A stretch of DNA of 64,000 nt from an uncultured Candidatus Saccharibacteria bacterium (GTDB lineage Bacteria; Patescibacteriota; Doudnabacteria; UBA920). Numbering within the stretch: the stretch's first letter is position 1; each line of letters begins with the position of its first letter. Location: NCBI GenBank assembly GCA_964532425.1, contig CAZHIA010000003.1, positions 5,594-69,593 of the forward strand, in the 5' to 3' direction. The notes under the pieces were generated by a model. It ran no database searches. It was not told the origin of the DNA and saw only the letters and a program-made list of their open reading frames with translations. Below, one piece after another: positions 34,468-59,408 of the stretch. Position numbers and translations under genes: made by a program.

Positions 34468-36288
34468 CTACTCAACCGTCGCCTTAATCCTCCTCACTCC
34501 TGCCGAGGAGGCTTCTTCTTTTTGTATTTTGAAATTACCGATCATTCCGGTATGTTCGACGTGCGGGCCGCCGCAAAATTCGCGGGAGACTACTTCATCC
34601 GTTTTGGGATCGTATACGGTATAGACGGAGACCGTATCCCCGTATTTTTCTCCGAATACGCCGATGGCATTCAATTTCTTAGCTTCTTCCAAAGGTAAAA
34701 CATCTTTTTTCACCGTTAGATCACGATTGATCCAATTATTAACCATTTTCTCGACTTCCTGCTTCTGTTCGTCGGTCATTTTTTCGCCATGCGTAAAATC
34801 GAACCGCGTGCGTTCTTCGGTAATATTACTCCCCTTTTGCCAGACGCTGTCGCCAAGCACTTTGCGCAAAGCAGCGTTCATCAAGTGGGTAGCCGTATGC
34901 AGCCTCACGATCTTGTCACTATGACTGGCTAAGCCGCCTTTAAATTGGCCTGCACTGGCTGTGCGGGAAAGTTCCTGGTGCTTTTTGAACTCCGATTCGA
35001 ACTCGGTCTTGTCGATTTGCTGGCCCATTGATTCGGCAAGTTCTTTGGTCAGCTCCCAGGGAAAGCCGAAAGTTTGGTAGAGATCGAAGGCATCCTTGCC
35101 GGTTAACCCCTGCTCCCCTGTACGGGAGGGTCGCGACCCTCCCCTACTCTGTATGATCTTTTCAAATTCCTTCAAGCCCTTTTCCAGCGTGGCCTCGAAC
35201 TTCTTCTGCTCTCCCTCGATCACGGCAAATATCCGCTCCGACTTATCGATCAAATCAGGATACGCTTCGGCATACGTTGCCACTACTTTGCCGATCAAAG
35301 CCTTCAGCCATTCATGCTTGAGTCCTAAAAGTCTTCCCATGACCATGGCGCGGCGCAGCAGGCGACGCAAAACGTAGCCGCGATCCTTATTGGACGGATC
35401 TACGCCGTCACCCACGATAAAGACCGAAGCCCTGATGTGGTCAAGCACGATCCGGGCTTTTTTCACCTCGTCGTTGGTCATAATGGCCTGGTCCAAGGCG
35501 ATCACTTCCCACATCGGTTTGAACAGCTCGGTATCGTAGACGGAACTGTGGCCATTCAAAGCGACCAGGGTACGGTCTAAACCCATACCGGTATCAACAT
35601 TCGGCTTTGGCAGCGGGGTCAGCGTACCGTCCGCATGCTTTTCGAACTGCATAAAAACGTCGTTCCAGATCTCGACCCAGCGCTTGTCGTTCTTCGTCTC
35701 CGCAAAATTCTTCGGCGCTGGAGTGCCGTCATCAACCCAATAGAACATTTCCGTATCCGGCCCGCACGGCCCGGTCGTTCCCGCAATCCACCAGTTATCT
35801 TCCTTAGGCAAATACGCAATACGCTCTTCGGGCACGCCAAGAGATTTCCACATCGAAGCCGCTTCTTCGTCGCGCGGAGCATCACTGTCACCGGCGAAGA
35901 CCGAAAACGCCAAACGCTCGAGCGGCAGCCCGAGATGTTTTGGATCGGTCAAAAATTCGAAGCTCCAGGAAATGGCTTCTTTCTTGAAATAGTCGCCAAA
36001 GCTCCAATTGCCGAGCATTTCGAAAAACGTCAGGTGGGTGTTATCCCCGACTTCGTCGATATCGCCGGTACGGATGCACTTTTGCACATCGGTCACGCGC
36101 GTACCGCCCGGATGATTCTCGCCCAAAAGGTACGGCACCAGCGGATGCATGCCGGCAGTGGTGAACAAAACGGAAGAGTCATTTTCCGGCACCAGACTGG
36201 CGGACGGAATTATTGTGTGGCCTTTGGACTTGAAGAATTCCAAATATTTGGTACGGAGTTCTTGGGCTGTAATGTGGGACATAAGCAA
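34468..36288 (-). CDS. alaS: alanine--tRNA ligase, short form (catalytic, tRNA-recognition and editing domains; no C-Ala domain)
   Basis: ELRTKYLEFFKSKGHTIIPSASLVPENDSSVLFTTAGM ... FEMLGNWSFGDYFK ... HTATHLMNAALRKVLGDSVWQKGSNITEERTRFDFTH editing motif. 606 aa. Carries the in-frame palindromic insertion at 35120-35147. Confidence 0.9.
   Translation of the reverse strand: MLMSHITAQELRTKYLEFFKSKGHTIIPSASLVPENDSSVLFTTAGMHPLVPYLLGENHPGGTRVTDVQKCIRTGDIDEVGDNTHLTFFEMLGNWSFGDYFKKEAISWSFEFLTDPKHLGLPLERLAFSVFAGDSDAPRDEEAASMWKSLGVPEERIAYLPKEDNWWIAGTTGPCGPDTEMFYWVDDGTPAPKNFAETKNDKRWVEIWNDVFMQFEKHADGTLTPLPKPNVDTGMGLDRTLVALNGHSSVYDTELFKPMWEVIALDQAIMTNDEVKKARIVLDHIRASVFIVGDGVDPSNKDRGYVLRRLLRRAMVMGRLLGLKHEWLKALIGKVVATYAEAYPDLIDKSERIFAVIEGEQKKFEATLEKGLKEFEKIIQSRGGSRPSRTGEQGLTGKDAFDLYQTFGFPWELTKELAESMGQQIDKTEFESEFKKHQELSRTASAGQFKGGLASHSDKIVRLHTATHLMNAALRKVLGDSVWQKGSNITEERTRFDFTHGEKMTDEQKQEVEKMVNNWINRDLTVKKDVLPLEEAKKLNAIGVFGEKYGDTVSVYTVYDPKTDEVVSREFCGGPHVEHTGMIGNFKIQKEEASSAGVRRIKATVE
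35120..35147. mobile_element. 28-bp palindromic element GTACGGGAGGGTCGCGACCCTCCCCTAC inserted in-frame in alaS
   Basis: Near-perfect palindrome centred on TCGCGA. Same architecture and termini as the elements at 59381, 39389 and 41359. Encodes the GGSRPSRTGEQG-type insert in AlaRS. Confidence 0.6.
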
Positions 36289-36383
36289 TAGTTATTTCAC
36301 GGATACACGGACTTCGCGGATGACGCGGAGCCCTTCAGCGGAATCCGCGTTTTCAGCGTATCCGCGAGAGAACTGAAATTGAG
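36289..36383 (-). promoter_or_regulatory. alaS upstream leader with multiple CGCGGA/TCCGCG inverted repeats
   Basis: CGGATACACGGACTTCGCGGATGACGCGGAG...CGGAATCCGCGTTTTCAGCGTATCCGCG. A possible operator or structured leader (E. coli AlaRS autoregulates via a palindrome at its promoter). Confidence 0.3.
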
Positions 36384-36854
36384 TTAATCAATTTTGTGAT
36401 ATTTCCTTACTAACCACTCCGATACATACCCAGTATACTTTCTTCTTACTTTGTCTGGCATATTTCGGTAGGCTCCAATAATTCCCCGGCAGCTTTCCGT
36501 TTCGCACTTGCACTGCATCCGCCACCAGGTGCTATCCTCGGTCATTTCATAGTCCCAGGTAATCTCCTCGCCAGGTTCTATATCCCGCATCGCCACGACT
36601 TCGACTAAATTCCGAATGCCACAATTCGGCTCGCATGAATGATTGATTAAATGGGCAGATCCGGCCGGCATGCGCCATTTCGCCGGGGCGATTTGAATGG
36701 AGTGGTGAAGCTCGTAGGAAGTAAAGTCGTCCTTTGCCGTAAGTATTTTTCCGTCAAAAGCCTCAACTAACTCCCCTTTCTTAATCTTTTCAGTAACAAA
36801 AACTCCCCAGCCGCCTACGCGACTTTTTTTTACCTTCAATTTCGGATTTTTCAT
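36384..36854 (-). CDS. SET-domain protein (putative protein-lysine methyltransferase)
   Basis: NHSCEPNC and EITWDY motifs plus a C-terminal Cys cluster (post-SET-like CKCETESC). Confidence 0.8.
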   Translation of the reverse strand: MKNPKLKVKKSRVGGWGVFVTEKIKKGELVEAFDGKILTAKDDFTSYELHHSIQIAPAKWRMPAGSAHLINHSCEPNCGIRNLVEVVAMRDIEPGEEITWDYEMTEDSTWWRMQCKCETESCRGIIGAYRNMPDKVRRKYTGYVSEWLVRKYHKID

Positions 36855-37060
36855 GAATACTTCTATTCGGAAATGGCCGGGCGGTAAGCCCGGCCAGTCT
36901 ATAATTTTGCAATTTCTGATTACTTGCCGGAGGTGATAAATTTTTTAATTGTAATTCGTTTTGTCTTGTCCGCCAAAGCCTTGCATTGCCCGGCATAACC
37001 CTGCCTACCGGCAGGCAGGTTTATGCGAAGCCGGGGCGACGGCGGATCAATTTTATTTAT

Positions 37061-38383
37061 TTACTTCGTCACTTCTTCCAAGGCCTTGTCCATCTGAGGA
37101 TCCTGGCCCTTGTCCACGTTCTCCTGGGTCAAGGTAACCTTCACGTCCGGTTCCAAACCGTCATGGTTCAGGTTTTTGCCGCCCGGGGTGATCCACTTGG
37201 CCACTGTGATCTTTAAGGCACTGCCGTCTTTAAGGGAAACTAATTCTTGGACACTACCCTTGCCGAAGCTCTTTTCTCCAATAAGTTCCGCTGCCTGGTG
37301 GTCATGCAAAGCTCCGGAAAGGATTTCCGCAGCCGAAGCGCTGCCGCCGTTAATCAGAACCACGGTTTTCACACCTTTAAGCTTGGCCTGGCCTTCCGCA
37401 TTGTATTTGGTCGGGTCACCCTCGCTCTTGGCTTCGGTTACCACCAGGTCTCCGGGAGCAAGCCAGTTGGAAGCCACGTCGACTGCAGTCTGCAAATAAC
37501 CGCCAGGGTTGTTGCGTAAATCGATCACAATCCCATTAACGTTCTTGGTCAGGATATCGTTCACTGCCTGGTCAAACAAGGGCTTAGTATCGTCGCCGAA
37601 CTGGGAAAGGGTAACGACTGCAATTTTCTTTCCATTCACATCTTTATAATCCCACTTCACGCTCTTCACTTTAATCTCGTCACGCACGATCGGCACATCG
37701 AACGGTTTATCCTTGCCCTGGCGGATGATCGTAAGCGTCACTTTGGTACCTTTGTCGCCGCGGATCTTGGCCACTGCCTGATCAACTGACCATTCAGCGG
37801 TCGATTGGCCATTGACCGCAGCCACTACGTCTTTGGCCTGCAGTCCCGCTTTTTGTGCAGGTGAACCGTCAATGGGCGCCACAATAGTAATGACACCGTT
37901 CTTCTGTCCGATCTCAGCGCCAATGCCGAAGAATTTGCCGCTTAGGTTTGTTTGGAAATCTTTTAATTCCTGCGGTTCAAAAAATGTAGTGTAAGGATCA
38001 CCTACCGAAGACACAGCTCCCTGGATGGCACCATACAACACCTTTTGCTGATCAACCGGCTTATCGATGTACTTGCTGTTTAACGTGCTGACAGCGTCCC
38101 ACAGCAGGTTATAATCCACTACTTGCGGCTGATTGGCTTGGTTGACGACCTTAAATTCCTTAGGAATAAAAATAAAGCCTCGATGGCCGGCGGCATATCC
38201 CGCACCGTAGCTGATTCCGACAATGAGCAGGACGGCGATGATTCTCACAAACAAATTATTACGGAGCGGAGCCGGGACAGCAGCGGAAGCAAGCGGTGCG
38301 GCAGCAGGCACAGCATGGGCGCTGGGGGCCTGAGGGACCGGAGGTTGCGCATTCTGGTTCTGGCTGTTTTCAGATGAATCCAT
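37061..38383 (-). CDS. ctpA: carboxyl-terminal processing protease (S41, PDZ-containing)
   Basis: PDZ segment GIGAEIGQKNGVITIVAPIDGSPAQKAGLQAKDVV and S41 catalytic region GGSASAAEILSGALHDH. N-terminal TM anchor. Confidence 0.88.
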   Translation of the reverse strand: MDSSENSQNQNAQPPVPQAPSAHAVPAAAPLASAAVPAPLRNNLFVRIIAVLLIVGISYGAGYAAGHRGFIFIPKEFKVVNQANQPQVVDYNLLWDAVSTLNSKYIDKPVDQQKVLYGAIQGAVSSVGDPYTTFFEPQELKDFQTNLSGKFFGIGAEIGQKNGVITIVAPIDGSPAQKAGLQAKDVVAAVNGQSTAEWSVDQAVAKIRGDKGTKVTLTIIRQGKDKPFDVPIVRDEIKVKSVKWDYKDVNGKKIAVVTLSQFGDDTKPLFDQAVNDILTKNVNGIVIDLRNNPGGYLQTAVDVASNWLAPGDLVVTEAKSEGDPTKYNAEGQAKLKGVKTVVLINGGSASAAEILSGALHDHQAAELIGEKSFGKGSVQELVSLKDGSALKITVAKWITPGGKNLNHDGLEPDVKVTLTQENVDKGQDPQMDKALEEVTK

Positions 38384-38464
38384 AAAAAATCTTATATTTT
38401 CCTGTTAAATATAATGAGCAGATGGGAATATTATAACACAAATAGGTTGCGTGATGCCAATAAA

Positions 38465-38562
38465 ACATTTAACCTTTGACAATTGACATTTAACCGATGA
38501 AATCAAAATCATCGTGTGGCATTATGTCAAAAGTTAAAGGTCACAGGTCAAATGTTGGGAAC
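38465..38562. repeat. intergenic word-repeat element (ACATTTAACC/TTGACA family)
   Basis: AACATTTAACCTTTGACAATTGACATTTAACC ... AAAGTTAAAGGTCACAGGTCAAATGTTGG. Confidence 0.6.
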
Positions 38563-39555
38563 TCACCTGCTTACCCTCGGATCACTCTTAACAGAATTGA
38601 TGACGATCAGTGTCCACATCCGCGCATAAATGCCGCAATAGACCAGCCAATTGAACCAAAACGGATATTTTTCGCGATAATGCTTGCGGTAAAAAATCCA
38701 CATAGCGTCATGGAACCAACGGAGGGCTTTGGTTGCGACCTTGCGGCTAGATTCGCCTTTGTAATGAGTAATGAACGTTTGAGGATAGTACCAAACCTTA
38801 AAACCCGCTTCCTTGCAGCGCCAGCACCAGTCCAGGTCTTCGCCGTACATGAAAAACGTTTCATCCAGCAGCCCGATCTTTTCGACAACATCCTTCCGCG
38901 CCAGACAGAAGGCTCCAACCAGACTGTCAATCTCCGATTCCTGGTCAGCCGTCTCATCCGAAAAGTTATACGCCGCATCTCCGGCTACCTTTTGCAAGTG
39001 TAAAAACCGCAGCATGGCATTCCACGGGTTCGGGAATTTCCGCCGCGCCGCGCGATCCAGGCTACCATCCGGCTTCATAATTTTGCACGTGCTCATGCCC
39101 ACATCCGGATGTGTTTCCATAAAATCGAGCATCACTTTGAACGTGTCCGGTTCGACCTTGGTATCGGGATTAAGCAGGAGGACGTAACGTCCGGTTGACT
39201 GTTTAATGCCGATGTTGTTGCCAGCCGCAAAACCGTTGTTGATGTTACGGATAAGCTTATAGCTATCAGCTGTCAGCTTATAGTTTTCGAGCCATTCATA
39301 GGTGCCGTCCGGTGAACCATTGTCGACGATGATAACCTCACCGGTATATTGCGCTCCATGAGGCTGGCTATTGGCTTGCTGTTCGGATGTAGGGGCGACT
39401 ACCAGCCGCCCTTCAGATTGCGGGCGGCCAGTGGCCGCCCCTACAAAAACCACCCTCTTACTACCCCAAATCGAAGGCAGCAGCACTTTAAGGTGTTCTT
39501 TGGACCGGTAGGAAAGAATAATAATGGAAAGATCAAACCTATTGACAGAATTCAT
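38563..39555 (-). CDS. glycosyltransferase family 2 (rhamnosyltransferase-like), with about 40-aa in-frame insertion
   Basis: LSIIILSYRS ... IIVDNGSPDGTYEW ... NNGFAAGNNIGIKQSTGRYVLLLNPD are GT2 motifs. An insert (WGSKRVVFVGAATGRPQSEGRLVVAPTSEQQANSQPHGAQYTG) is encoded by the palindromic element at 39389-39444. Confidence 0.8.
   Translation of the reverse strand: MNSVNRFDLSIIILSYRSKEHLKVLLPSIWGSKRVVFVGAATGRPQSEGRLVVAPTSEQQANSQPHGAQYTGEVIIVDNGSPDGTYEWLENYKLTADSYKLIRNINNGFAAGNNIGIKQSTGRYVLLLNPDTKVEPDTFKVMLDFMETHPDVGMSTCKIMKPDGSLDRAARRKFPNPWNAMLRFLHLQKVAGDAAYNFSDETADQESEIDSLVGAFCLARKDVVEKIGLLDETFFMYGEDLDWCWRCKEAGFKVWYYPQTFITHYKGESSRKVATKALRWFHDAMWIFYRKHYREKYPFWFNWLVYCGIYARMWTLIVINSVKSDPRVSR
39389..39444. 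mobile_element. 56-bp palindromic element GTAGGGGCG...CGCCCCTAC inserted in-frame in the GT2 gene
   Basis: Termini GTAGGGGCG / CGCCCCTAC are exact reverse complements. The inner GCCGCCC / GGGCGGC arms add a second stem. Confidence 0.55.
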
Positions 39556-39595
39556 AAATTGTAGTATAACAAATGGTCAAAGGAGGAAAAAGATA

Positions 39596-39985
39596 ATGTT
39601 TTTTGAAGGAAAACAGGTCTATATTCTCATTATCGAGGAAGGCAAAAAGGTCCTCGCCAATGTCATCGGCTGGCATCTTGAACCAAATGACCAACAAGGT
39701 GCTTTCGAAAAACCCGAAAAGATCCTCTACGAAACCGGCACAGAACGGCTGCCACTGGAGCACAATCACAAGATCCAACTACTCTGTGACCCGACCCTGT
39801 TTGTCAAAGGCGGACCTGAATGGGGAGAATTTGTTCCCCGCAGGGACGACGAACGGAACGGCCGCGGAGTCTTGATTGTTTTCGATGACTTCGACGGCAA
39901 TACGGTGTGCGGGCTCTTGAACTCTCAGTGGTCTGCGTTCGACACCTGCAGCCTGTATGAAGGCTCGCTCCTTGTCTTTCTTTGA
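39596..39985 (+). CDS. hypothetical protein (129 aa)
   Basis: Strong SD AAAGGAGG 8 nt upstream of the ATG. Followed by a terminator. Opposite strand to the flanking GT genes. Confidence 0.55.
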   Translation: MFFEGKQVYILIIEEGKKVLANVIGWHLEPNDQQGAFEKPEKILYETGTERLPLEHNHKIQLLCDPTLFVKGGPEWGEFVPRRDDERNGRGVLIVFDDFDGNTVCGLLNSQWSAFDTCSLYEGSLLVFL

Positions 39986-39999
39986 GCTGTGTCCCGCTT

Positions 40000-40040
40000 C
40001 CGGCCATGCGTCAAAAACGCATGGCCAGCTTTATTTTATT
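40000..40040 (+). terminator. rho-independent terminator
   Basis: Hairpin GGCCATGCG/CGCATGGCC followed by CTTTATTTTATT. Confidence 0.6.
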
Positions 40041-40129
40041 ACAATAATACTGACAGTATTATAGCGCTCTTTCAACACTGTTTTTCAAATGGGCAAAACG
40101 TGCTATTGTTGTATTGAAAAGGTGGGACA

Positions 40130-40513
40130 ATGGAACAATTGAAGTTTATATTCGAGCCGGTTTCGCTGCAAGTTGGCGACACCCTCCGGGTTTCAAAGGT
40201 TGCATGGAAAATATCTCTTACCAACGAGATTGGTTTTGCCACCAAACTCCCGGAAGAATCCACAGAAGTCATCGTGCATGCCTGCGCCTTTATCCCACTG
40301 GCTGGCATCGGTCATTCCGCCCTCAAAGGCATCATCCATTACAGGAACGGAGAACTGTTATTTTACCGGCAAAACCATTTTGGCCATGCCTGCAGAGAAC
40401 CGCTCTACCTTTCCCGTTTCTGGGATGGTGATATCATTACCATCACCAGCACCCCGAGCCGGCACCCTTCATCAATTCAAAACACCCAGATGCCGTGCTT
40501 GACCACTCAGTAG
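40130..40513 (+). CDS. hypothetical protein (127 aa)
   Basis: SD AAGGTGGG upstream. No family recognised. Confidence 0.5.
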   Translation: MEQLKFIFEPVSLQVGDTLRVSKVAWKISLTNEIGFATKLPEESTEVIVHACAFIPLAGIGHSALKGIIHYRNGELLFYRQNHFGHACREPLYLSRFWDGDIITITSTPSRHPSSIQNTQMPCLTTQ

Positions 40514-40549
40514 CGTGCACTATAGACATCCGACGGGCTGGAGGATTTA

Positions 40550-40753
40550 ATGTCGAAGAACAAAACAAGAAAAGCTGAGGTTATGGAATACGTAACTTCA
40601 AAAGATGGTAAGCTGATCGGCCGAAAAGGACAAGAGGTTTACCTTCCAGAAGGCTATGTAGCCCAAGTCATCGCTGTCCCGGTCAACTCGCCGGAGGGAC
40701 AAGTATTAAAATCACACGATGCACGCCAGTGTCCGAACATCGCCTCAACATGA
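40550..40753 (+). CDS. hypothetical small protein (67 aa)
   Basis: SD GGAGG upstream. Terminator downstream at 40810-40838. Confidence 0.45.
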   Translation: MSKNKTRKAEVMEYVTSKDGKLIGRKGQEVYLPEGYVAQVIAVPVNSPEGQVLKSHDARQCPNIAST

Positions 40754-41788
40754 CCTGGCGACATCTCCTGGTCTCTGAACGATTTGGCGCTTCCGCCACA
40801 TTTTCGGCAACTGCCTGAACATTTCAGGCAGTATTTTTAATGTCGAAATTTCGAACAGCACTATATAGCCTAGCATAAAAAATTCCCGGATAAAAAATTG
40901 AGGATAAAAATGCCGCGAATTTTTGACATACATAAAAATATGGTTCTTATAGTTGAGCTGCTTCACCCGCGGACTAATCATTTTATGATGTTTGATAAAC
41001 CCCGACACATCAGCATATCCATTTTTCGATGAGCCTGCACCCCTGCCGTGATAGCCGACCGCCTCAGGCACAAACACGCATTTCCAGCCTGCATTCCGCA
41101 GACGCCACGCCAGGTCAACATCTTCCCAGTAGGAATGGAAGTCCTCGTCGAAATACTCGAACTGACCTTTGGCATTTGGCATTTGACACTTAACCGCTTC
41201 CAAAGCGGTGCGTCGATAAGCACATCCGGCACCGGAAACCGCATCGACGACTAGCTCATTGTCGTACTGGCCCCGATCAATCTCATGCTGCCCGCGGTCG
41301 CGTGCGCGCCCAGATTTGCTAATAGAAACACCGGTCGTGTCTAAAATATTGGTCTTCTGTACGGGACGGCTCGCCTCGCTCGACACGAGTCGAAGCGGGT
41401 CACGACCGTCCCCTACGGGAAATCCAAAATTGCACCGCAACAACTTCCCCGTCGCCGCCCCCACCTTCTCATCTTCAAACACTTTCACCATCCGCTCAAT
41501 GTAATCCGGCTCCATGATAAAATCCGGATTAACCAACTGAAAAAGATCGCTCTGGTATTTCTCGAACACTAAATTGTGCCCTTTAGAAAATCCGATGTTA
41601 TACCCAGGATCTATTATCTCCACCTGGGGGAACTTTTCCGTGAGCAGTTCTTTGCCATGGTCATCATTGCCGCTTATAACCGCCACGACGTGGATATTCT
41701 TGTATGTCTGGTTAAAGATAGCCGAAAAGACCGGTTCAATAAATCGGCGGTTGTTGTAAATGACTTGAATTACGATAACCTTAGGCAT
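40745..41788 (-). CDS. glycosyltransferase family 2 (rhamnosyltransferase-like) with in-frame palindromic insertion
   Basis: GT2 N-terminal fold (VIVIQVIYNN...AVISGNDDHG) and C-terminal DVDLAWRLRNAGWKCVFVPEAVGYHGRG. The segment VGDGRDPLRLVSSEASRPV is encoded by the element at 41359-41416. Confidence 0.8.
   Translation of the reverse strand: MPKVIVIQVIYNNRRFIEPVFSAIFNQTYKNIHVVAVISGNDDHGKELLTEKFPQVEIIDPGYNIGFSKGHNLVFEKYQSDLFQLVNPDFIMEPDYIERMVKVFEDEKVGAATGKLLRCNFGFPVGDGRDPLRLVSSEASRPVQKTNILDTTGVSISKSGRARDRGQHEIDRGQYDNELVVDAVSGAGCAYRRTALEAVKCQMPNAKGQFEYFDEDFHSYWEDVDLAWRLRNAGWKCVFVPEAVGYHGRGAGSSKNGYADVSGFIKHHKMISPRVKQLNYKNHIFMYVKNSRHFYPQFFIREFFMLGYIVLFEISTLKILPEMFRQLPKMWRKRQIVQRPGDVARSC
40810..40838 (+). 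terminator. rho-independent terminator
   Basis: Hairpin CTGCCTGAACATTTCAGGCAG followed by TATTTTT. Confidence 0.6.
41359..41416. mobile_element. 58-bp palindromic element GTACGGGACGG...CCGTCCCCTAC inserted in-frame in the GT2 gene
   Basis: Termini are reverse complements with the same single C/G asymmetry as the alaS copy. Inner GGTCACGACC resembles the GGTCGCGACC core of the other copies. Confidence 0.55.
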
Positions 41789-41830
41789 AAAAATTTAATG
41801 AGCAACATTTGACATATGACATTTAACCTT
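41789..41830. repeat. intergenic word-repeat (AACATTTGACATATGACATTTAACC)
   Basis: Same word family as 6426, 26409, 29704 and 48717. Confidence 0.55.
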
Positions 41831-41972
41831 TACCTGTAGTGCAGGCCCTCGGCCTGCCTGTATTCAAATCGCACTGATCTATGGCAGCCCACGGGGCTGC
41901 ACTACATCAATTCTTTAATTTTGAATCAACTAAAAAGTCGAATCTCAATTATCCAAAGTTTAAATGTTGCAC

Positions 41973-44742: not shown

Positions 44743-44747
44743 AGACC

Positions 44748-45567: not shown

Positions 45568-45690
45568 ACAACAATAATTGACAAAAATGACAAAATTGAA
45601 CAAAATTGACAAAATTATGCTGCAATTCTATCTTCAATTTTTGTCAATTCTGTCATTTTTTTAAATTTTGATCAATTTCTAACAAGCATT
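45568..45690. repeat. composite intergenic palindrome (TTGACAAAAT family), copy 3
   Basis: AATTGACAAAAATGACAAAATTGAACAAAATTGACAAAATT ... AATTTTTGTCAATTCTGTCATTTTTTTAAATTTTGATCAATT. Confidence 0.75.
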
Positions 45691-50975: not shown

Positions 50976-51070
50976 TGCAGTACTCCGTGTTTTAGGTCCA
51001 CTTGACCGTTGAGTGTCCTCCTTACATCAGGACTGGCTATTATAATACAACGAGACCGTCCTGTCAAGAG

Positions 51071-51111
51071 CAACAAAAAACGCAAGGCCGGGTTTCAAAC
51101 CCGACCTTGCG
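51071..51111 (-). terminator. rho-independent terminator
   Basis: Hairpin CGCAAGGCCGGGTTTCAAACCCGACCTTGCG with a U-run on the minus strand. Confidence 0.6.
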
Positions 51112-51125
51112 AATGTGAGTGAGTT

Positions 51126-52994
51126 CTATTTTTCTATCGTATCACCCTTGCCGTAACCATCCACTTCCGACTGCGGTAATGTGGTAATCTGCTTCGGCTT
51201 GATTCTGCGGTTGTTGAAGGCTTTCAGAGTTAGCGGCCTCAGCTGTCCTTTTTGCACCAGATAGACCGTACCGTCCTTGTCACCCTTGATGATCGTGCCA
51301 TCCTTGGGCGGGACCGGCATGCCAAGCTGCCACGTACTGGCTACGTCCTGGGAAAAGACGTAATCAGGAGTAATCTTGCGCTGCTTGATCACATAATCGG
51401 AGATGGGGTGCATGGACCCTTCCTTATACTCGTATTGCTGCCCGGTCTTAGAACCGATGGCGAAGAACGTGTAATCTTTAGGCGCCGCAAATCCTCCGGC
51501 TGGCAGCGCGTCCACCTCCTCGGGAGCCAACGAAGCAATCTGCTTATAGCTGAATCCGCGGTTCTTGAAGATTTCACCGAGCACCGGCTGTTTCAGACCA
51601 TTCTGGATCTGATAGACCGTACCGCTATTACTGGCTTTGACCAGAGTGCCGTCAAGCGGCGGCACGAAGCCGTTTTGCGTATACGTGGAAATCTCATCAT
51701 CCGGCACGGAATAGATGGACTTGGCCGTCACCTTGCGCTGGCCGAACGTAAAGGCCGAAAATAGCTTAATCTTGCCGTCCTGGACCAAATATACGGCCTT
51801 ATTCGTGACTCCGCGGATGACCGTGCCGTCTTTCGGCGGCAAGACTGTTCCGTTGTCGAACAGCATGGCATCCTGAGCGCTGACGGTAATTACCTTTTCC
51901 GGATTGAGACCGCGTTGTTTGAGCACTAAGTCAGACGCCAGGTGTTTGATATTATTCTGGAACAAATATTTTTTATTCTCTCCCGCTACCGTCACGATGG
52001 TATCATCGACCGGACCTAAAACCTTGTCGGTTTGATAGCTGTCGAACTCATTCGGAGAAACGACAACTGTGGTGTTCAAATTCAAATTGCGGGCTTGGGC
52101 GACGAACAACGGCACCAATTGTTTGACTCCATTCTGAATTATGTACGTATCGAGCCCGTTGGCGAGCTTCAGGAGCGTACCGTTTGGATATTTGAACCAA
52201 GCCTGAAAATATTTCCAAAAATTATAATTGCCGTTATAGACATGCGGCGTAAAACGGTATAGCGCGGCAGTCGCGCGGTTGGAAAGCTGCAGGGTCTGCT
52301 GCGGCATAATGCCGTCATAGCCGCCCATAGTGTTTTCCAAAGTAATGACGTCCCCGACATGGGAAACGCTGCCGTTGAATTCCGGCCCGCGCCCATTCGG
52401 CGTGGAAAATGATTTCATCAAGGATTTGGCAGCGCCTAAATAACGGTTGCCGCTGGAATCGAAATTCCCGAACAGTTGATAATAGAATCCCGGGTACATA
52501 CTCTGGCTGCAGCCGGTGCTATCGGGGCAGCCGAAGCCCAAAGCAAAATCCAGCGCCCGCTGGAGTCCCTGCTGGTTCGGATCGGAAAAGGCGGTAATCA
52601 GCCCCTGTTCCTTATTGAGTGTGACCAAAATAACTTGCGGGTTCAGGCCGCTGGCCCGCGATGCGTCCCAGATCAATTCGGCTGCCGTACGCAAACGCCC
52701 GAGATTCGGCTGTGGATCATCAAGCCCTTGTTTGAGCATGGTCACCGTCGGCTCTTTGAGTTTGACCAAAAAATCAGGACTCGTATTGGCTAGGACCGAC
52801 CCCTTAATTTCCAGAAACTTTTGAATACCCTGCGGCCCGCCGAATGTTTCCATATCGCCAAACACCTTATCGTCAATAAGTTTTTCCGGATTGAACGCCG
52901 AGTCAACCGCCTGGCCTTGTGCCAGGGCAGGAAGCGGCAATAAGACCAACATGATTATCACAAGCAGCTTGGCGAATTTTTTATTGATGGGCAT
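51126..52994 (-). CDS. secreted protein (622 aa) with N-terminal uncharacterised domain and three C-terminal about 60-aa repeat modules
   Basis: Signal peptide MPINKKFAKLLVIIMLVLLPLPALA. Repeats DGTVIRGVTNKAVYLVQDGKIKLFS... / DGTLVKASNSGTVYQIQNGLKQPV... / DGTIIKGDKDGTVYLVQKGQLRPL... shared with the adjacent S8 protease. Confidence 0.6.
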   Translation of the reverse strand: MPINKKFAKLLVIIMLVLLPLPALAQGQAVDSAFNPEKLIDDKVFGDMETFGGPQGIQKFLEIKGSVLANTSPDFLVKLKEPTVTMLKQGLDDPQPNLGRLRTAAELIWDASRASGLNPQVILVTLNKEQGLITAFSDPNQQGLQRALDFALGFGCPDSTGCSQSMYPGFYYQLFGNFDSSGNRYLGAAKSLMKSFSTPNGRGPEFNGSVSHVGDVITLENTMGGYDGIMPQQTLQLSNRATAALYRFTPHVYNGNYNFWKYFQAWFKYPNGTLLKLANGLDTYIIQNGVKQLVPLFVAQARNLNLNTTVVVSPNEFDSYQTDKVLGPVDDTIVTVAGENKKYLFQNNIKHLASDLVLKQRGLNPEKVITVSAQDAMLFDNGTVLPPKDGTVIRGVTNKAVYLVQDGKIKLFSAFTFGQRKVTAKSIYSVPDDEISTYTQNGFVPPLDGTLVKASNSGTVYQIQNGLKQPVLGEIFKNRGFSYKQIASLAPEEVDALPAGGFAAPKDYTFFAIGSKTGQQYEYKEGSMHPISDYVIKQRKITPDYVFSQDVASTWQLGMPVPPKDGTIIKGDKDGTVYLVQKGQLRPLTLKAFNNRRIKPKQITTLPQSEVDGYGKGDTIEK

Positions 52995-53004
52995 AGAGTA
53001 TCCG

Positions 53005-53165
53005 GTTAATGTTTTTAGTAGAAATTCATTGAAACTGATTGAAATTAGTCGTGTCTCACGATTAGTTTCAATAAATTTCTACCAGTTTCTATTAATTTCG
53101 TGCAGTATGCAGCAACAATTTTGTCAATTTAAAATTTTGCTCAATTTTGTCAATTATAATATATA
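53005..53165. repeat. composite intergenic palindrome (GAAATTGATTGAAATT / TTGTCAATTT words), copy 4
   Basis: GAAACTGATTGAAATTAGTCGTGTCTCACGATTAGTTTCAATAAATTTC plus TTTTGTCAATTTAAAATTTTGCTCAATTTTGTCAATT. Confidence 0.65.
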
Positions 53166-55004
53166 CGCTTCCCCTTTCGGGTAGTTCGGTACATCCTTGT
53201 CCGAGATTATAAAAAGCGGAAATACGTTAAGACCGCGCTGCAGGTAGAAACCGCGGTTAATGGGATGCAAAGCTCCGGCCACTACCCAATATACGGTCTG
53301 GCCGCGGCTGCCCCGGACCAGCGTACCGTCAGTCGGCGCCAAAAACGGCCCTGTAATCCACGAACTGACTTCCGGGTAACTGACCGTGTTAACATCGCTG
53401 AATTTGAAACCGCGCTGCTGAAAAACCTGGTATGTAACCGGCTGCTTTAAACCTTTGGAAATTATATAGACCGTACCGTCGGAGATACCTTTAACCAGGG
53501 TATTTTCGAGCGGAGTCGCATATGCCCCCTCCGGATACATGCTGAGCTTGGCTTGGGACACAATCTTAATGCCGATGCCAAAGAAGCGCTGATTATAGAC
53601 AAAAGAAGAAACAAGCCGCCGCTGGCCGCCCGCAATCTGGTACACCGCATCGGAGTCCTGAGATTTGACCAAGTCACCATCCATAATAGCCGTCACCAGA
53701 TCGCTCTGAAGCGCTTTCACCACATTAATCCTGCCGGTTCCCAGCTTGCCTTTGCACGAACCGCCGCCGCATTGAGTCAGGTTCAAATCATCTATCGGAT
53801 CGACTGCGGAAACAATTCGGTCGCGAATCTGGATATTGGTCGCTGTTGGATACATGGCTTTCAGCAGCACCGCTTCGGCTGAAACGAATGGTGCAGCCAA
53901 GCTGGTCCCAGAAACGTAGGCATACGAATTCGGAGCCAGATTGTTGTTCACCGGCTCATGGTTGATGGTGGAAAGAATGCGCTTGCCCGGGGCGGACACG
54001 TCGATACAATTTTTGCCATAATTGGAAAAAGTAGGCTTCAGGTCATTCTGATCCACCGCAGCTACGCCGATGACCATATTTTGGTCATTATCATTGCAAA
54101 TAGGAAAGACCGGTTTTGCATCAAGATCGCCTCCCGTGGTAGCAACATCGTTTCCGGCAGCGGCAACAATAACCACTCCTTTACCGAATGCGTAAGAAAT
54201 GGCGCTGGCCAGGGCAGCATCATGGGAGAAACCACTGCCACCGAGACTAATATTGATAATAGATGCTTTATGATCGGTGGCCCACACAATAGCTTCTGCC
54301 ACGGTTGCGGCATCACCCCGGCCTTCTGCGTCGAGGGCTTTGAGCGGCATAACCGTCACATTCCAGGCGCCACCTGCAATCCCCTTGTTATTATTCGGTA
54401 CGGCAGCCAAAATCCCGGCGATCAGCGTGCCATGACCGTTATCATCGGAATTCACGTCACCACGGAGGGGCTGGTTGGCCACAAAATCAAAACCGTCAGC
54501 CTTGCGGATACCTTGAAGGTCCTCATGGGTAAAATCTATGCCAGTATCGATGATAGCCACAGTCGCGGTAGCGGTACCGGTAGTTTTTTCCCAGGCAATC
54601 GGGAACCCCGCCTTGGTAAGACCCCACTGTTTGTCAATATCCCGGGGATTCAAAGTAAACCCAGGGTCATTAACCGTCACGGTCTCTTCCTGCATCTGGC
54701 CTAAAGGCTCCAGGGATACCACCGATGACCCGAAGCGGCGCTGTAGTTCCTCTAAAGAATATACGGAGCGGAAGGTATAAATGTTTCTGAATTGCTGTTC
54801 ATGAGAAAAAACAAACCGATGGCGCACATCAGTCCCCGCCTGCTGCAGCACGGCTGCATCATCTGATTTCAATTGTACGACGTAGGAGGCTGGGGCTGAC
54901 GCATTCGCTGGTGCGGTGATACTGCCGGCCATAGCAAAAAAAACTGAGAATATCAGTACGGTTATCGTGATGTGCGTGCGTTGTGAGGCTACCTTTAATT
55001 CCAT
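53154..55004 (-). CDS. subtilisin-like serine protease (S8) with C-terminal triplicated about 60-aa repeat modules
   Basis: Catalytic triad motifs AIIDTGIDFTHEDL (Asp), HGTLIAGILAA (His), GTSLAAPFVSAEAVLL (Ser). C-terminal repeats DGDLVKSQDSDAVYQIAGG..., NTLVKGISDGTVYIISKG..., DGTLVRGSRGQTVYWVVAG.... Confidence 0.85.
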   Translation of the reverse strand: MELKVASQRTHITITVLIFSVFFAMAGSITAPANASAPASYVVQLKSDDAAVLQQAGTDVRHRFVFSHEQQFRNIYTFRSVYSLEELQRRFGSSVVSLEPLGQMQEETVTVNDPGFTLNPRDIDKQWGLTKAGFPIAWEKTTGTATATVAIIDTGIDFTHEDLQGIRKADGFDFVANQPLRGDVNSDDNGHGTLIAGILAAVPNNNKGIAGGAWNVTVMPLKALDAEGRGDAATVAEAIVWATDHKASIINISLGGSGFSHDAALASAISYAFGKGVVIVAAAGNDVATTGGDLDAKPVFPICNDNDQNMVIGVAAVDQNDLKPTFSNYGKNCIDVSAPGKRILSTINHEPVNNNLAPNSYAYVSGTSLAAPFVSAEAVLLKAMYPTATNIQIRDRIVSAVDPIDDLNLTQCGGGSCKGKLGTGRINVVKALQSDLVTAIMDGDLVKSQDSDAVYQIAGGQRRLVSSFVYNQRFFGIGIKIVSQAKLSMYPEGAYATPLENTLVKGISDGTVYIISKGLKQPVTYQVFQQRGFKFSDVNTVSYPEVSSWITGPFLAPTDGTLVRGSRGQTVYWVVAGALHPINRGFYLQRGLNVFPLFIISDKDVPNYPKGEAYIL

Positions 55005-55113
55005 TAAAAATTCAGATTATTCAATGGTTCCATACGGGAATCCATGGCTCACGTCGGGCGAGGCGAACCACCGCTTCCTATAAACTATAACCTACAAACT
55101 ATAAACTATTCCC

Positions 55114-55833
55114 TTATTTGTACTTTCCCGACCACAAATTCAACCGTACTTGAATAACTTCAAGTAGCATGTTGACCATGCCGGAAAACTTCACATGACT
55201 TGCCTCGTCATTGACCCACGTAATAGGCAGCTCCTGGATCTTGCAGCGGGAGCGTCGCGCCAGGGCAAGGATCTCGACATCAAAGGCCCAGCGGTAAATG
55301 GTCTGTTTGGGAAAAATGGCTTGGGCTGATTTGGCCGTAAAAGCCTTAAATCCGCATTGAGTGTCAGTGACACCGACCGGCACCAGAATATGGACAATAG
55401 TCCTAAAGCACCAGCCGAGAAATTCCCGGATCATTTTTTGATCCTTGGCCACATGCGAGCCGGCAATGCGCCGGGACCCGACCACCGCATCAAACCCCTG
55501 GTCAAAGTAAGGCAAGAAATTGCCGATTTCGTCGATCTTGGTGGAGTTGTCCGCATCCATAAATACGCGAACATCTCCGCTTGCTTCCAGCATGCCCTGC
55601 TTGACCACCCACCCTTTCCCGTGATTTTCCTGGTTGTCCAGCAAGCGAATACGCGGAATTTGCGGCTGTAGTTGTTTCACTACTTCGGCGGTATTGTCTT
55701 TGGAACCGTCATTCACCACCACAATCTCCGACTCATAACTCTGCGCCGACAGGTATTCATTGACTGAAATGAGGGTGTGGGAAATGCGGGATGCCTCGTT
55801 ATACGCCGGTATAACGACCGATAATTTTTTCAT
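55114..55833 (-). CDS. GT2 polyprenyl-phosphate glycosyltransferase (dolichyl-phosphate mannosyltransferase-like)
   Basis: KLSVVIPAYNEASRI ... EIVVVNDGSKDNT ... DADNSTK ... GSRRIAG is the typical DPM1/ArnC-like GT2 arrangement. Confidence 0.8.
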   Translation of the reverse strand: MKKLSVVIPAYNEASRISHTLISVNEYLSAQSYESEIVVVNDGSKDNTAEVVKQLQPQIPRIRLLDNQENHGKGWVVKQGMLEASGDVRVFMDADNSTKIDEIGNFLPYFDQGFDAVVGSRRIAGSHVAKDQKMIREFLGWCFRTIVHILVPVGVTDTQCGFKAFTAKSAQAIFPKQTIYRWAFDVEILALARRSRCKIQELPITWVNDEASHVKFSGMVNMLLEVIQVRLNLWSGKYK

Positions 55834-55947
55834 TTTTGATATTTTAATGGCACCTATAGTATACCAAAATCAGCCGCTTTTTCATAATTCCCTGCCTTAG
55901 CAAAGACGAAGGTGTCCGATTTTTTGTTACGAAAAGAACCAGCAGCA

Positions 55948-56406
55948 TTACTGCTGCTGGTGCGAGAGATTTCTGCACTGGGCGGATTGATGCGCATGGA
56001 GCCTGGAGACCACCTGTGCCGGTAGGCACGCGGACAAATCGCTTAAGAGGTCTGGATCCTGTCCTTGGCCGCCGAGAATGGTTTCGATCATTTCCACAAG
56101 CAATAGCATAGCATCTTCTACGAGTGGGTGATCTAAAGCCAGCCGGCTTGAAGTTTGCAGACGCTTAATCTCCCCTTCCAGAAGCTGAAGATCGGAAAGG
56201 TTCAGATTGGTATTCCTGCGTATGCGGCACAAACCTCTCAGCCGAGCAAGCGGTTTTTCGTTTTTCAATGCCTCAATCTGCAAAAGGATTTCCGGATGAG
56301 TGCCGGCGGTGTCCTGGACGGGCTTGAGACGCAAACCTGCTGGTTTACGGTAATCCGAAGTTTCAAAAGTTCTCATACTGCCATCAGTTTCTGCGACGTG
56401 CATCAT
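55948..56406 (-). CDS. hypothetical protein (152 aa)
   Basis: Clean co-directional ORF. No family recognised. Confidence 0.4.
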   Translation of the reverse strand: MMHVAETDGSMRTFETSDYRKPAGLRLKPVQDTAGTHPEILLQIEALKNEKPLARLRGLCRIRRNTNLNLSDLQLLEGEIKRLQTSSRLALDHPLVEDAMLLLVEMIETILGGQGQDPDLLSDLSACLPAQVVSRLHAHQSAQCRNLSHQQQ

Positions 56407-56513
56407 GCCTCCTTACCACCACTATAGCAGCGCGATTTAGGGAACGCAATTCAGATTACGCACGAGCGTCTCCATTCACTATCATATGAAATGTGCCGGG
56501 CAGGGACCGCGCA

Positions 56514-56547
56514 CGATTAAAAACCGCCGCACGGTATCGTGCGGCGG
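56514..56547 (-). terminator. rho-independent terminator after galE
   Basis: Hairpin CCGCCGCACGGTATCGTGCGGCGG followed by UUUUUAAU. Confidence 0.6.
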
Positions 56548-56579
56548 TACATACCCGGCTATTTCGCCTCAACGCTTTT

Positions 56580-57758
56580 CTACACGGAATTTTTTTCCAT
56601 AGAGCGCTGCATTTGCGTCCAGCTGGTAGCAATAATCGTATCCAGGTCCGAATGCTGCAATTCAAACCCAAGCTCTTCCCTGAGCTTCCTGTTGTCAGCC
56701 ACTGTGGCCGGAGCATCCCCGGCGCGGCGCGGTCCAGCTTCCATAGGAATCATGCGTTCCAGAATTTCCGACGCTTTATTGACAACTTCCCGCACGCTGC
56801 TGCCGTGTCCGGTGCCAATGTTGTATATGCGGTAGCTTTCGGTCGCTTCAAGTTTGGCAAGTGCTACGACATGGGCACGTGCGATATCGAGCACATGGAC
56901 ATAATCGCGGACGCAGGTGCCGTCCTGGGTGTTATAATCAGTTCCGTTGATCAAAAGGTACGGACGCTTGCCCAAGACCACTTCCAGAACTATCGGAATT
57001 AGGTGAGACTGGTGCGTCGGCATAATCTCTCCGTCAAAATCGCAACCGCAGGCATTAAAATACCGGAACACCACGGCTTGAAAACCGGAAAAATGGCAGT
57101 GGTATTTAATCAGGCGTTCGGCCAGCAGCTTGCTGTAGCCGTACGGGTTATTCGGACTCAGTTTGGCGGTCTCCGGAATCGGCACAACCTGTTGTTCGCC
57201 GTAGACGGCAGCGGTTGAAGAAAATATGATTTTTTTGACGTCATATTCAGCCATCGCCGAAAGCAGGACAGCCGTATTCAGCGTATTGTTCTTTAAATAC
57301 TTCTCCGGCTCGCGGACCGACTCTTCAACTTCAATACTCGCGGCAAAATGCATGACCGCATAAAAGCGTTCCTGGGCAAAAATATCACGCAGAAGGTTCG
57401 CATCTCCGACACTGCCTTCAATAAAACGGACTCCGGCCGGGACATTCTCGCGTTTACCGCTGGAAAGGTTATCCAGGATGGTCACCTGGTAGCCGGCTTT
57501 TAACAGTTCGCGGGTGGCATGTGCGCCAATATACCCGGCTCCCCCGGTCACCAGAATCCGCCGATTCTGGCTTTCCTGCTGCTGGAGACTCTCGATGGCT
57601 GATTCCAGCACCGCATGGTCGCTGCCGTTCTTAAGCAGCTGGTTGTATTTATCCACGGTCAATACCACTACTTCCGGACGGTTTTGCAGGTTCAGCACCA
57701 TGCCGCCTCCCCTATTTTTCACTTCGGCTATCAACTCTTCTAAATATTGTTGATCCAT
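56580..57758 (-). CDS. galE: UDP-glucose 4-epimerase with about 65-aa N-terminal extension resembling a Phd/YefM-type fold
   Basis: RILVTGGAGYIGAHATRELLKAGYQVTILDN, YxxxK region and C-terminal GalE. Upstream in-frame MDQQYLEELIAEVKNRGGGMVLNLQNRPEVVVLTVDKYNQLLKNG with no Met at the epimerase domain start. Confidence 0.8.
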   Translation of the reverse strand: MDQQYLEELIAEVKNRGGGMVLNLQNRPEVVVLTVDKYNQLLKNGSDHAVLESAIESLQQQESQNRRILVTGGAGYIGAHATRELLKAGYQVTILDNLSSGKRENVPAGVRFIEGSVGDANLLRDIFAQERFYAVMHFAASIEVEESVREPEKYLKNNTLNTAVLLSAMAEYDVKKIIFSSTAAVYGEQQVVPIPETAKLSPNNPYGYSKLLAERLIKYHCHFSGFQAVVFRYFNACGCDFDGEIMPTHQSHLIPIVLEVVLGKRPYLLINGTDYNTQDGTCVRDYVHVLDIARAHVVALAKLEATESYRIYNIGTGHGSSVREVVNKASEILERMIPMEAGPRRAGDAPATVADNRKLREELGFELQHSDLDTIIATSWTQMQRSMEKNSV

Positions 57759-57873
57759 AACCTTAGCGCAAATTAATTTACCCAGGCACCTTTCGCGAAT
57801 GAACAAGCGCCTGAGGCGAAAATATCACTTTCTATGAACCGACAGGCAGAACGATATAAAAAGGTGCCTGGGT

Positions 57874-57918
57874 CAAAAAAAACAGCTTCGTTTTTCAAAA
57901 TCAAGCTGTTTTTGTTTT
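57874..57918. terminator. bidirectional rho-independent terminator
   Basis: Hairpin AACAGCTTCGTTTTTCAAAATCAAGCTGTT with T-runs on both sides. Confidence 0.6.
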
Positions 57919-58061
57919 GATTTTTCGCTTGTGGGTATTTGTACTAAACCAATCATAGCACGGTAAAAAAATAATGCAAATTTTCAGACCTGTAACGTGC
58001 CGATTTATCGGCCGAAAATGAGAAAGCCGATAAAATCGGCACGCTACGATTGTTGAACCTT

Positions 58062-58097
58062 CATAGAAAAAGCCACCCCAGTGTAAGCCAGGGTGGC
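58062..58097 (-). terminator. rho-independent terminator after 58118 gene
   Basis: Hairpin GCCACCCCAGTGTAAGCCAGGGTGGC followed by UUUUUCU on the minus strand. Confidence 0.55.
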
Positions 58098-58117
58098 CGC
58101 AAAGCGCTCGCCTCCGG

Positions 58118-59248
58118 CTAGCGCAAATAGACGTAAGCAGTGCCGATGGTCCCCACATCAGCGGGATCCTTTGTGTTCGTGTAGGTGACCATCAGCAGGT
58201 GGGCCCCGTCGGAAACAATGCCGGTGCCGACCAAATTTTTCGGAACCTGAAGGTTGATCTGGTCGAGTCCCGGAAACTGGGACGGTCCGACGTAGGTGAG
58301 CGCGTTCGGGATCTCCTTGTTGTCCAGGAGAACCTTAAACGTATACCCGGTCATTTTGCGGACCGGATTTGTGCTCGGATCATCGATCCCGAGCCCCGTC
58401 GCCCACAGAATGAGCACATATGAAGGCAACGACGAACTGTACACGGTGGCCGGCGTGTCCTTGCCCGAGGTCGTGTATTTGTCCTTGCCCTCGTTGGCAT
58501 ATTGAATGATCGCCGTGCCCCCGCTCTGGAAGAATCCAGGAACGAGCGGCTTGACCGTCACGGTCATAATATCACCGATCAGCGACCCGAACTGATTCTT
58601 CCGCCGCACATGCACCTGGATGTTTCCGAACGGCGTGAACAACGGAACCACGAAATTGATCTGTGTGTTGCTCACATAGTACAGCTGGGCAGGAGCCCCA
58701 TTGACCAGAACCTCGACATCGAGTGCCGAAGTCGGCAATTGCCCGTTGGCCGTGAATATGGCCGCCGGGTTCAGCGTGAACCCAGTTCCCATGATGGTCG
58801 CGATCTCCATGGGCGCAACTATGCCGTAGGATTGGAACGTAGCGCCATGGACCACACCTAACTCATCGACGGGGTTGTCTTTGTTCACGATCTGAACCCA
58901 TGCACTCGCCGTGGTTGTCGCACCAGTGGCATCGGCACAGGTATACGGGTAGTCTACCGTAACCATCGACAAAGTCGTCGGCAGTAACGCCTGTAACACT
59001 TCTTCTCTGCCCGGCTGCCGCGCTGCGTTGTTATTCCAGACCGCGCGGCAGGATGTTGCATCCGAACCGGCCGCGATGATGAGCCCGAACATGTCCCCGC
59101 TCCGAATGCGGAGCGGATGTCCGGCATCCGTGGTCACGAATGAGTTAACGCCCTTGCCGGGCGGAACCACGCGCGCGATCACGTTGAATTGTGGCGCCGC
59201 CGAAAGCAGGCCGACGGAAAACAAAGCGCAAAATAGTTTGCTTAACAT
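58118..59248 (-). CDS. hypothetical secreted protein (about 376 aa, Ig-like/beta-rich)
   Basis: Start at MLSKLFCALFSVGLLSAAPQ (signal peptide) preceded by SD CAGGAGGGG. Beta-rich, no catalytic motif recognised. Confidence 0.55.
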   Translation of the reverse strand: MLSKLFCALFSVGLLSAAPQFNVIARVVPPGKGVNSFVTTDAGHPLRIRSGDMFGLIIAAGSDATSCRAVWNNNAARQPGREEVLQALLPTTLSMVTVDYPYTCADATGATTTASAWVQIVNKDNPVDELGVVHGATFQSYGIVAPMEIATIMGTGFTLNPAAIFTANGQLPTSALDVEVLVNGAPAQLYYVSNTQINFVVPLFTPFGNIQVHVRRKNQFGSLIGDIMTVTVKPLVPGFFQSGGTAIIQYANEGKDKYTTSGKDTPATVYSSSLPSYVLILWATGLGIDDPSTNPVRKMTGYTFKVLLDNKEIPNALTYVGPSQFPGLDQINLQVPKNLVGTGIVSDGAHLLMVTYTNTKDPADVGTIGTAYVYLR

Positions 59249-59380
59249 CTGTATCCCCTCCTGAGGGTTGTAAACGTTCACCTGTAGCTGTCTCATGACA
59301 GCCATTCAAGTTACACAATAGGCGCACCCTCTCTTGGATGCGCCTGTTTTGGAACTTGATGTTTGTTTAGTATTGTTCCC

Positions 59381-59408
59381 GTAGGGGCCGGTCGCGACCG
59401 GCCCCTAC
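59381..59408. mobile_element. 28-bp perfect palindromic element GTAGGGGCCGGTCGCGACCGGCCCCTAC (intergenic copy)
   Basis: Perfect palindrome centred on TCGCGA, immediately 3' of the giant repeat gene. Same family as 35120, 39389, 41359. Confidence 0.6.

Follow-up and report, generated by a model that had tools for sequence, protein, structure and literature searches.

Palindromic elements in a Doudnabacteria locus

The 64,000-nucleotide stretch of DNA analysed here (the window) belongs to a genome of Candidatus Doudnabacteria, within the Patescibacteria or Candidate Phyla Radiation (CPR), and carries a small set of GC-rich palindromes with the anatomy of repetitive extragenic palindromes (REPs). 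Three of them lie inside uninterrupted open reading frames (ORFs), all on the minus strand. The first host gene is alaS (34468-36288; PF01411 and PF07973), which encodes a short, 604-aa alanyl-tRNA synthetase (AlaRS) of the CPR type. Its product is a 100% match to database protein P0001, which is encoded on a contig of 285,837 bp and starts at the ATG at 36282, and relatives at 72-83% identity are named Candidatus Doudnabacteria or Patescibacteria. The other two hosts are genes for GT2 glycosyltransferases, GT2a (38563-39555; 330 aa; PF00535 and PF13641) and GT2b (40745-41788; 347 aa).

The alaS palindrome (35120-35147) is a 28-bp double-foot GTAG REP, GTACGGGAGGGTCGCGACCCTCCCCTAC, with GTAC and CTAC feet, a GGG/CCC stem base and the centre TCGCGA. 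GT2a contains a 56-bp palindrome (39389-39444) whose complementarity reaches one more base on each side (39388-39445), and GT2b an imperfect 58-bp palindrome with GTAG and GTAC feet and the degenerate centre TCACGA (41359-41416). The fourth copy, GTAGGGGCCGGTCGCGACCGGCCCCTAC, is intergenic (59381-59408); it is a perfect 28-bp palindrome, also a double-foot GTAG REP, separated by 18 nt from the upstream stop codon of a minus-strand ORF of 1517 aa and by 75 nt from the gene that lies downstream. A 28-mer identical to it was found in a Gemmatimonadales genome (L021). A first-pass annotation, made from the sequence alone, had described these four palindromes, with common ends, two TCGCGA centres and open frames across the genic copies, and each of these features is present; the ends read GTA(G/C)GGG...CCCCTAC. 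The 7-mer GTASGGG has 18 sites in the window on both strands, compared with 9.1 ± 3.1 in shuffled sequences, none of 100 shuffles reached 18, and the paired ends of the four palindromes make up 8 of the 18.

As single-stranded DNA, all four palindromes form hairpins, as the annotation had expected, with folding free energies (dG) of -8.3 to -19.8 kcal/mol and z scores of -2.8 to -5.5 relative to shuffled controls; the intergenic copy gives a dG of -14.7 and a z of -5.5. Folding resolves the GT2a element (39388-39445) into an inverted dimer of two GTAG REPs with the feet pointing outwards, 56-58 bp long and resembling a REPIN (an inverted REP dimer). Each arm consists of GTAG, a 7-bp GGGCGRC stem and a 5-nt loop, and a 10-nt spacer separates the arms. 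The GT2b element appears to be a 28-mer (minus strand, GTAGGGGACGG-TCGTGA-CCGTCCCGTAC) that has acquired a 30-nt internal, hairpin-forming expansion; its GACGG/CCGTC stem recurs in a 28-mer of another locus (L085). A fifth element lies between a Wzy-like gene and GT2b (41835-41906) and belongs to a second GTAG family (TGTAGTGCAGGCC...GGCTGCACTACA). It is a 70-72-bp REPIN-like inverted dimer made of two GCAGGCC/GGCCTGC hairpins with a 24-nt spacer. A search of the whole window with Rfam at the gathering threshold matched no RNA family to the palindromes; its sole match was RNase P.

Two smaller proposals of the annotation did not hold up. The CTGTA left flank thought to be common to the alaS and GT2b copies shrinks to two bases (CT) once the element itself is subtracted, and the segment at 24675-24700, suspected of being a degenerate relative, resembles the elements in direct, not inverted, orientation and forms no hairpin (dG -1.3, z -1.8). 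Two candidates with a single foot were seen at 56523-56550 and 14577-14604 (minus strand), reading GTAC plus CGCCGCACG..CGTGCGGCG and GTGG plus CCGTCCCAGA..TCTGGGGCGG followed by TTT; these could be either additional REP-like hairpins or normal terminators.

Position of the inserts in the encoded proteins

The alaS palindrome codes for SRGGSRPSRTG, residues 379-389 of AlaRS, the GT2a palindrome for VGAATGRPQSEGRLVVAPT, and the GT2b palindrome for VGDGRDPLRLVSSEASRPV, residues 125-143. In an alignment of 120 AlaRS orthologs, SRGGSRPSRTG is unique to the window protein: the exact sequence occurs in none of the 119 others, most of which have a loop of 6-8 residues at this point. The window AlaRS exceeds the norm of about 595 aa by about 9 aa, and the extra residues are confined to the insert loop.

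The 25-aa GT2a insert is absent from the ortholog at a syntenic locus that lacks the inserts (L203; gene order Wzy-GT2-GT2-S41 peptidase-AlaRS-PGI), and the closest homologs of GT2b, which lack its insert, have LLRYDFDENQKTNII where the window protein has LLRCNFGFPVGDGRDPLRLVSSEASRPVQKTNIL. The spacer between the Wzy-like gene and GT2b measures 184 nt in the window (41789-41972), where it holds the 70-bp GTAGTGCAGGCC REPIN-like element, and 5 nt in L203 (5824-5828). Judged from the ortholog alignments and this insert-free locus, all three genic inserts are lineage-specific, in keeping with the annotation's core reading of hairpin repeats that colonise ORFs and leave them intact.

Structure models place two of the inserts in loops. 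In the AlphaFold model of AlaRS, residues 379-389 lie at the junction between helix 350-381 and the following loop, before helix 397-407, and the confidence score (pLDDT) falls below 50 at residues 385-392. In the GT2b model, residues 125-143 lie in a loop between two strands (121-143), with pLDDT below 50 at residues 125-140. Both inserts are thus predicted to occupy low-confidence loops between conserved secondary-structure elements, in line with the surface-loop location that the annotation had raised.

Different palindromes recur in the same loops

In about 28 of the 120 AlaRS orthologs, the loop that carries the insert in the window protein is lengthened by additional residues, and at two loci of other Doudnabacteria lineages we confirmed the source in the DNA. 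The alaS gene of L201 carries a GTAG palindrome, GTAGGGGCGGGTTTTAAACCCGCCCCTAC, in this loop, and that of L202 carries an in-frame GTAGTGCAGGCC... inverted dimer, of the same family as the window element at 41836-41905. The GT2b loop behaves likewise, with a palindrome, GTAGGGGAGGGTTTAAAACCCTCCCCTAC, in L206 and a 59-bp dimer built like the window GT2a element in L207, both also confirmed in the DNA. Between lineages, the insertion points within these shared loops are offset by 0-4 codons. Such scatter fits a selective filter better than one exact target, and we infer from these sequence comparisons that recurrence in the same loops is better explained by selection for permissive loops than by a single exact target site.

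A second type of in-frame insert, of about 40 aa, was noticed in Doudnabacteria proteins. It is present in AlaRS orthologs P0006 and P0029, in the same loop as the window insert, and in the GT2 ortholog P0123 (L207:313-1536), and it codes for ...TTPS..GG.P(L/S)LSQEGN...SSPP..GGVP..AGGGG, recurring in different proteins. No hairpin of this 'PPLLSQEGN' type occurs in the 64-kb window. In size the type is nearer to the Rickettsia palindromic element RPE-1, which at about 100-150 bp is much longer than the window elements.

Spread and stem covariation of the 28-mer design

The design of the 28-bp elements extends far beyond the window. A scan for GTASGGGNNNNTCGCGANNNNCCCSTAC, with one genome per species, found at least 120 loci, from which 123 matches were listed; a rough estimate puts the chance expectation at only a handful. 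The matches span Chloroflexota, Cyanobacteriota, Acidobacteriota, Omnitrophota, Planctomycetota, Nitrospinota, Bacteroidota, Desulfobacterota and other phyla. Among the matches listed, 55 of 123 are one identical 28-mer, GTAGGGGCGGTTCGCGAACCGCCCCTAC, and 103 are perfect palindromes. The four free stem positions covary, with 49 cells changed on both sides compared with 9.7 in shuffles; none of 500 shuffles reached the observed score, and controls with a slid register collapsed. The impression gained from the window copies, that inner stems vary while complementarity is kept, is therefore borne out on this larger set.

Stop-free frames of at least 40 aa flank 53 of the 123 listed matches on both sides. 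All but one of these 53 use two frames, both of which avoid the stop codon in G|TAG, and give the peptides VGAVREPPL or xRGGSRTAPT. In a separate scan of metagenome contigs with AlaRS as the query, mostly relatives at about 50-57% identity were recovered, with few elements; the contig L128, considered below, was among them.

Palindromes of this type are associated with RAYT-like genes

Six of the 123 listed matches lie within small HUH/Y1 genes resembling those for REP-associated tyrosine transposases (RAYTs), in the loop that follows the HUH motif. With a profile built from these six, a seventh RAYT-like gene was found on L128 (8445-9056), directly upstream of alaS. It holds an internal double-foot REP, GTAGGGGCGAATGGCCATTCGCCCCTAC, in otherwise AT-rich sequence. 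L128 is a CPR-like contig, and its short AlaRS is 55% identical to the window AlaRS. The RAYT-like proteins match the NCBIfam model REP_Tyr_transpos with E values of 1e-16 to 1e-19, and Pfam Y1_Tnp weakly; their homologs are labelled 'REP element-mobilizing transposase RayT' by JGI. Most of 120 RAYT homologs (P0241-P0360) carry palindrome-type peptides in the post-HUH loop, for example VGANGHSPL, RRGDRPVAPT and RGGSRTAPT. The palindrome type is thus physically associated with RAYT genes. Peptides matching the window's own REPs were not found among these 120 homologs.

RAYT-like proteins of this kind (subclass 2.4 type) nearly always have at least one peptide coded by a GTAG palindrome in the post-HUH loop, and sometimes a tandem array, such as RGDRPVAPTPVAPTPVAPT. 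This trait had been described before (Quentin et al. 2018, PMC6006769); the gene on L128, next to alaS, shows it on a CPR-like contig.

Comparison with known repeat systems

These findings were set against published REP systems. TnpA_REP proteins of subclass 2.4 (Bertels group 4) have the motifs NH[IFV]H, WQ and YIxNNP (Quentin et al. 2018, PMC6006769). Their long REPs have a stem base of three G-C pairs, and 'double foot' REPs combine a 5′ GT[AG]G with a 3′ C[TC]AC, a form that could come from central deletion of an inverted dimer; the tnpA_REP genes themselves carry in-frame REPs (PMC6006769). The GTAG and CGTC super-families of REPs were defined by Di Nocera et al. 2013 (PMC3733652), who recorded in-frame units inside genes for DNA repair and for tRNA synthetases. 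They placed RPE-4 and RPE-6, two short Rickettsia elements found within genes, in the CGTC super-family, which has no associated transposase. TnpA_REP cuts single-stranded DNA at CT (or CA) beside the hairpin, and GTAG takes part in the choice of site (Corneloup et al. 2021, PMC8266576).

All four window copies have GTAG on at least one strand, the other foot being GTAC in the alaS and GT2b copies; CCCCTAC closes each of them, and GGG/CCC follows directly after the foot. The GT2a element and the fifth element (41836) are inverted REP dimers. The window elements are, in every anatomical respect, double-foot GTAG REPs and not a new class of element. With subclass 2.4 REPs they share the foot, the C[TC]AC end, the GC stem base, non-disruptive in-frame insertion and a patchy spread over many phyla. 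The subclass 2.4 REPs have been described mainly for Cyanobacteria, Bacteroidetes and scattered other phyla, in or beside the transposase gene (PMC6006769), whereas the window REPs belong to a CPR genome and occupy alaS and GT2 genes.

The likeness to the GTAG super-family lies in short GC-rich stem-loops, present as singletons and head-to-head dimers, in frame in housekeeping genes and with extragenic copies just 3′ of ORFs. In that super-family, the tag is unpaired at one end and intragenic units are a minority (PMC3733652), whereas in the window CTAC at the opposite end is the partner of the tag, and intragenic copies are three of the four. The 56-bp and 70-bp elements, as two inverted REP hairpins with a short spacer, are like REPINs (Bertels and Rainey 2011, PMC3116915). 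REPINs, however, were defined with RAYTs of groups 2/3, in Pseudomonas and comparable bacteria, and occur as hundreds of near-identical extragenic copies (PMC3116915), whereas the window elements are few (four, plus one of the second type, in these 64 kb, no two of them identical), divergent and partly intragenic. Miniature inverted-repeat transposable elements (MITEs), derived from DDE transposases, are a poor fit: no direct duplication flanks the four copies, and typical terminal inverted repeats were not seen at them.

The annotation had likened the elements to Rickettsia palindromic elements (RPEs), which were reportedly described by Ogata et al. in 2000 and for which we know of no transposase. 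As a functional analogy this is fair, since both are selfish-looking palindromes of reduced genomes that insert in frame into essential genes and give the proteins extra peptide segments at the surface. The family is a different one: RPE-4 and RPE-6 carry a CGTC tag, the window elements have a GTAG tag and a size of 28-58 bp, and there is no sequence relationship between them.

The annotation's suggestion of novelty goes too far. The kind of element and its in-frame behaviour have been described (PMC6006769, PMC3733652), including intragenic GTAG REPs in tRNA synthetase genes (PMC3733652), and only the occurrence in CPR/Patescibacteria appears to be undescribed. Our literature search found nothing on the 28-mer, on its peptides, or on REPs or RAYTs in Patescibacteria/CPR.

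Origin and spread of the elements

The window palindromes are probably non-autonomous double-foot GTAG REPs that were moved by a RAYT of subclass 2.4 (group 4) and survive in permissive loops. Under this model, elements in the form of 28-bp singlets and 56-70-bp REPIN-like inverted dimers would be extruded as hairpins of single-stranded DNA, as may happen on the lagging-strand template. Their foot and stem would then be recognised by a REP-associated tyrosine (HUH/Y1) transposase, which would cut beside the hairpin and join it into new sites, and copies would have landed in alaS, the two GT2 genes and two intergenic spacers of this Doudnabacteria lineage. CPR genomes have very little intergenic DNA, and many insertions would therefore hit genes. 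The survivors would be those that restored the frame, avoided the G|TAG stop frame and lay in structurally permissive surface loops, and such a filter would account for the presence of different palindromes in the same loops across lineages. For this particular genome, we infer that the REPs were spread by a RAYT from the anatomy of the elements and from the RAYT genes that carry such palindromes elsewhere.

Several observations weigh against this account. No RAYT-like gene was found in the 64-kb window, and the RAYT-like proteins found elsewhere score 60.7-68.3 bits, below the NCBIfam curated cut-off of 80. The window copies, at 4-5 per 64 kb, are divergent, and the differences between their inner stems give no hint of a recent burst. 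Very few such elements occur in the 21.8 kb of L203, the closest uninserted relative, or in more distantly related CPR-like loci totalling about 790 kb. Three of the four copies lie inside ORFs, while REPs are predominantly extragenic. The flanks of the 123 listed matches (CC, TT and then CT are the commonest dinucleotides) have a mild pyrimidine bias and no clean CT target; the CT or CTGTA flank was for this reason dropped as a candidate target site, only 2 nt of it being shared between the window copies. Finally, 28 bp is not a multiple of 3, and the closest orthologs without inserts, at about 82% identity, are too distant to fix the exact boundaries of the inserts or the route by which the frame was restored.

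Some of these points could be read as signs that the hairpins are mobile or copied by other means, such as a different transposase, gene conversion or recombination between copies, or the uptake of DNA fragments from outside, with the RAYT link of other phyla not applying here. The lack of a RAYT in the window and the mutual divergence of its copies would fit, and identical 28-mers in unrelated phyla, such as the L021 match to the intergenic copy, could mean horizontal spread and not resident activity. This is nevertheless unlikely, because the foot, stem base and double-foot design are exactly those of RAYT subclass 2.4 REPs, a RAYT-like gene with an internal double-foot REP lies on the CPR-like contig L128, and the terminal inverted repeats and target-site duplications of DDE-type MITEs are not visible at the four copies. 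That the hairpins are kept for a function, either as an RNA or DNA signal (mRNA stabiliser, attenuator or protein-binding site) or as selected Gly/Arg/Pro-rich loops, and are not neutral or selfish, seems to us improbable. Stem complementarity is strongly maintained, and the intergenic copy, 18 nt past a stop codon between genes of the same direction, has a typical REP position that is thought to affect mRNA (PMC3733652). On the other hand, close relatives have either unrelated peptides or no peptide in the same loops, both modelled inserts fall in loops of low confidence, and the hairpins match no Rfam family and have no T-run.

We consider it very improbable that the palindromes formed in place, for example by template switching or hairpin-templated repair, and are alike only as simple GC-rich palindromes. 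The differing inner stems could be so explained, as could the resemblance of the 58-bp copy to a 28-mer with an internal 30-nt expansion, but all copies have the same 7-nt feet, and the 28-mer design is found in at least 120 genomes, against the handful that our rough estimate allows for chance, and is linked to one transposase family. Membership of the RPE families is hardly credible: the behaviour of RPEs, as in-frame hairpin inserts in housekeeping genes, is the same, but the tag of RPE-4 and RPE-6 is CGTC (PMC3733652) where that of the window elements is GTAG. The greater length of RPE-1 also speaks against it.

Read in this way, the elements extend the GTAG-REP/RAYT system to the CPR, where mobile elements are poorly charted. 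The recurrence in AlaRS and GT2 is a useful observation beyond the known kind of element and amounts to a natural experiment, in which different palindromes in the same loops across lineages mark those loops as insertion-tolerant. Inserts of this kind account for differences in length among CPR proteins and for their unusual stretches rich in Gly, Arg and Pro, and the palindromes for the very common 'VGA...PL' and 'RGGSRTAPT' peptides of metagenomic protein sets. A broader proposal is that a REP/RAYT system is active in CPR and repeatedly seeds peptide loops at permissive sites of essential proteins (AlaRS, GT2), or that REPs spread there without a resident RAYT, for instance with an enzyme from a host or partner cell. 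We regard this as doubtful at present, with some small chance of being right; if REP/RAYT activity were seeding such loops, it would be a recurrent source of protein-loop variation.

Other features of the window

In the window, alaS is flanked by a gene for a four-helix-bundle protein like 23S-rRNA-IVP/bAvd (34067-34432, minus strand) and a SET-domain gene (36384-36854, minus strand). Both are absent from the syntenic L203 locus, where a NUDIX gene follows alaS. A link between the palindromes and the four-helix gene was considered and rejected, since no homolog of that gene occurs in 120 palindrome-bearing loci.

The RNase P match noted above is a bacterial class A RNA at 13879-14193 (minus strand), with a score of 104 bits, just over the gathering score of 100. 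The window also contains AT-rich arrays of short TGACA/TTGAC-like units (for example ACATTTGACCTTTGACATGTGAC and AATTGACAAAATTGAACAAAA), which form long imperfect inverted repeats at several places: 6429-6552, 26386-26476 and 29716-29776; 32761-32851 and 45573-45677; 12143-12227; and 26904-27012. These arrays are a repeat family separate from the GC-rich palindromes.

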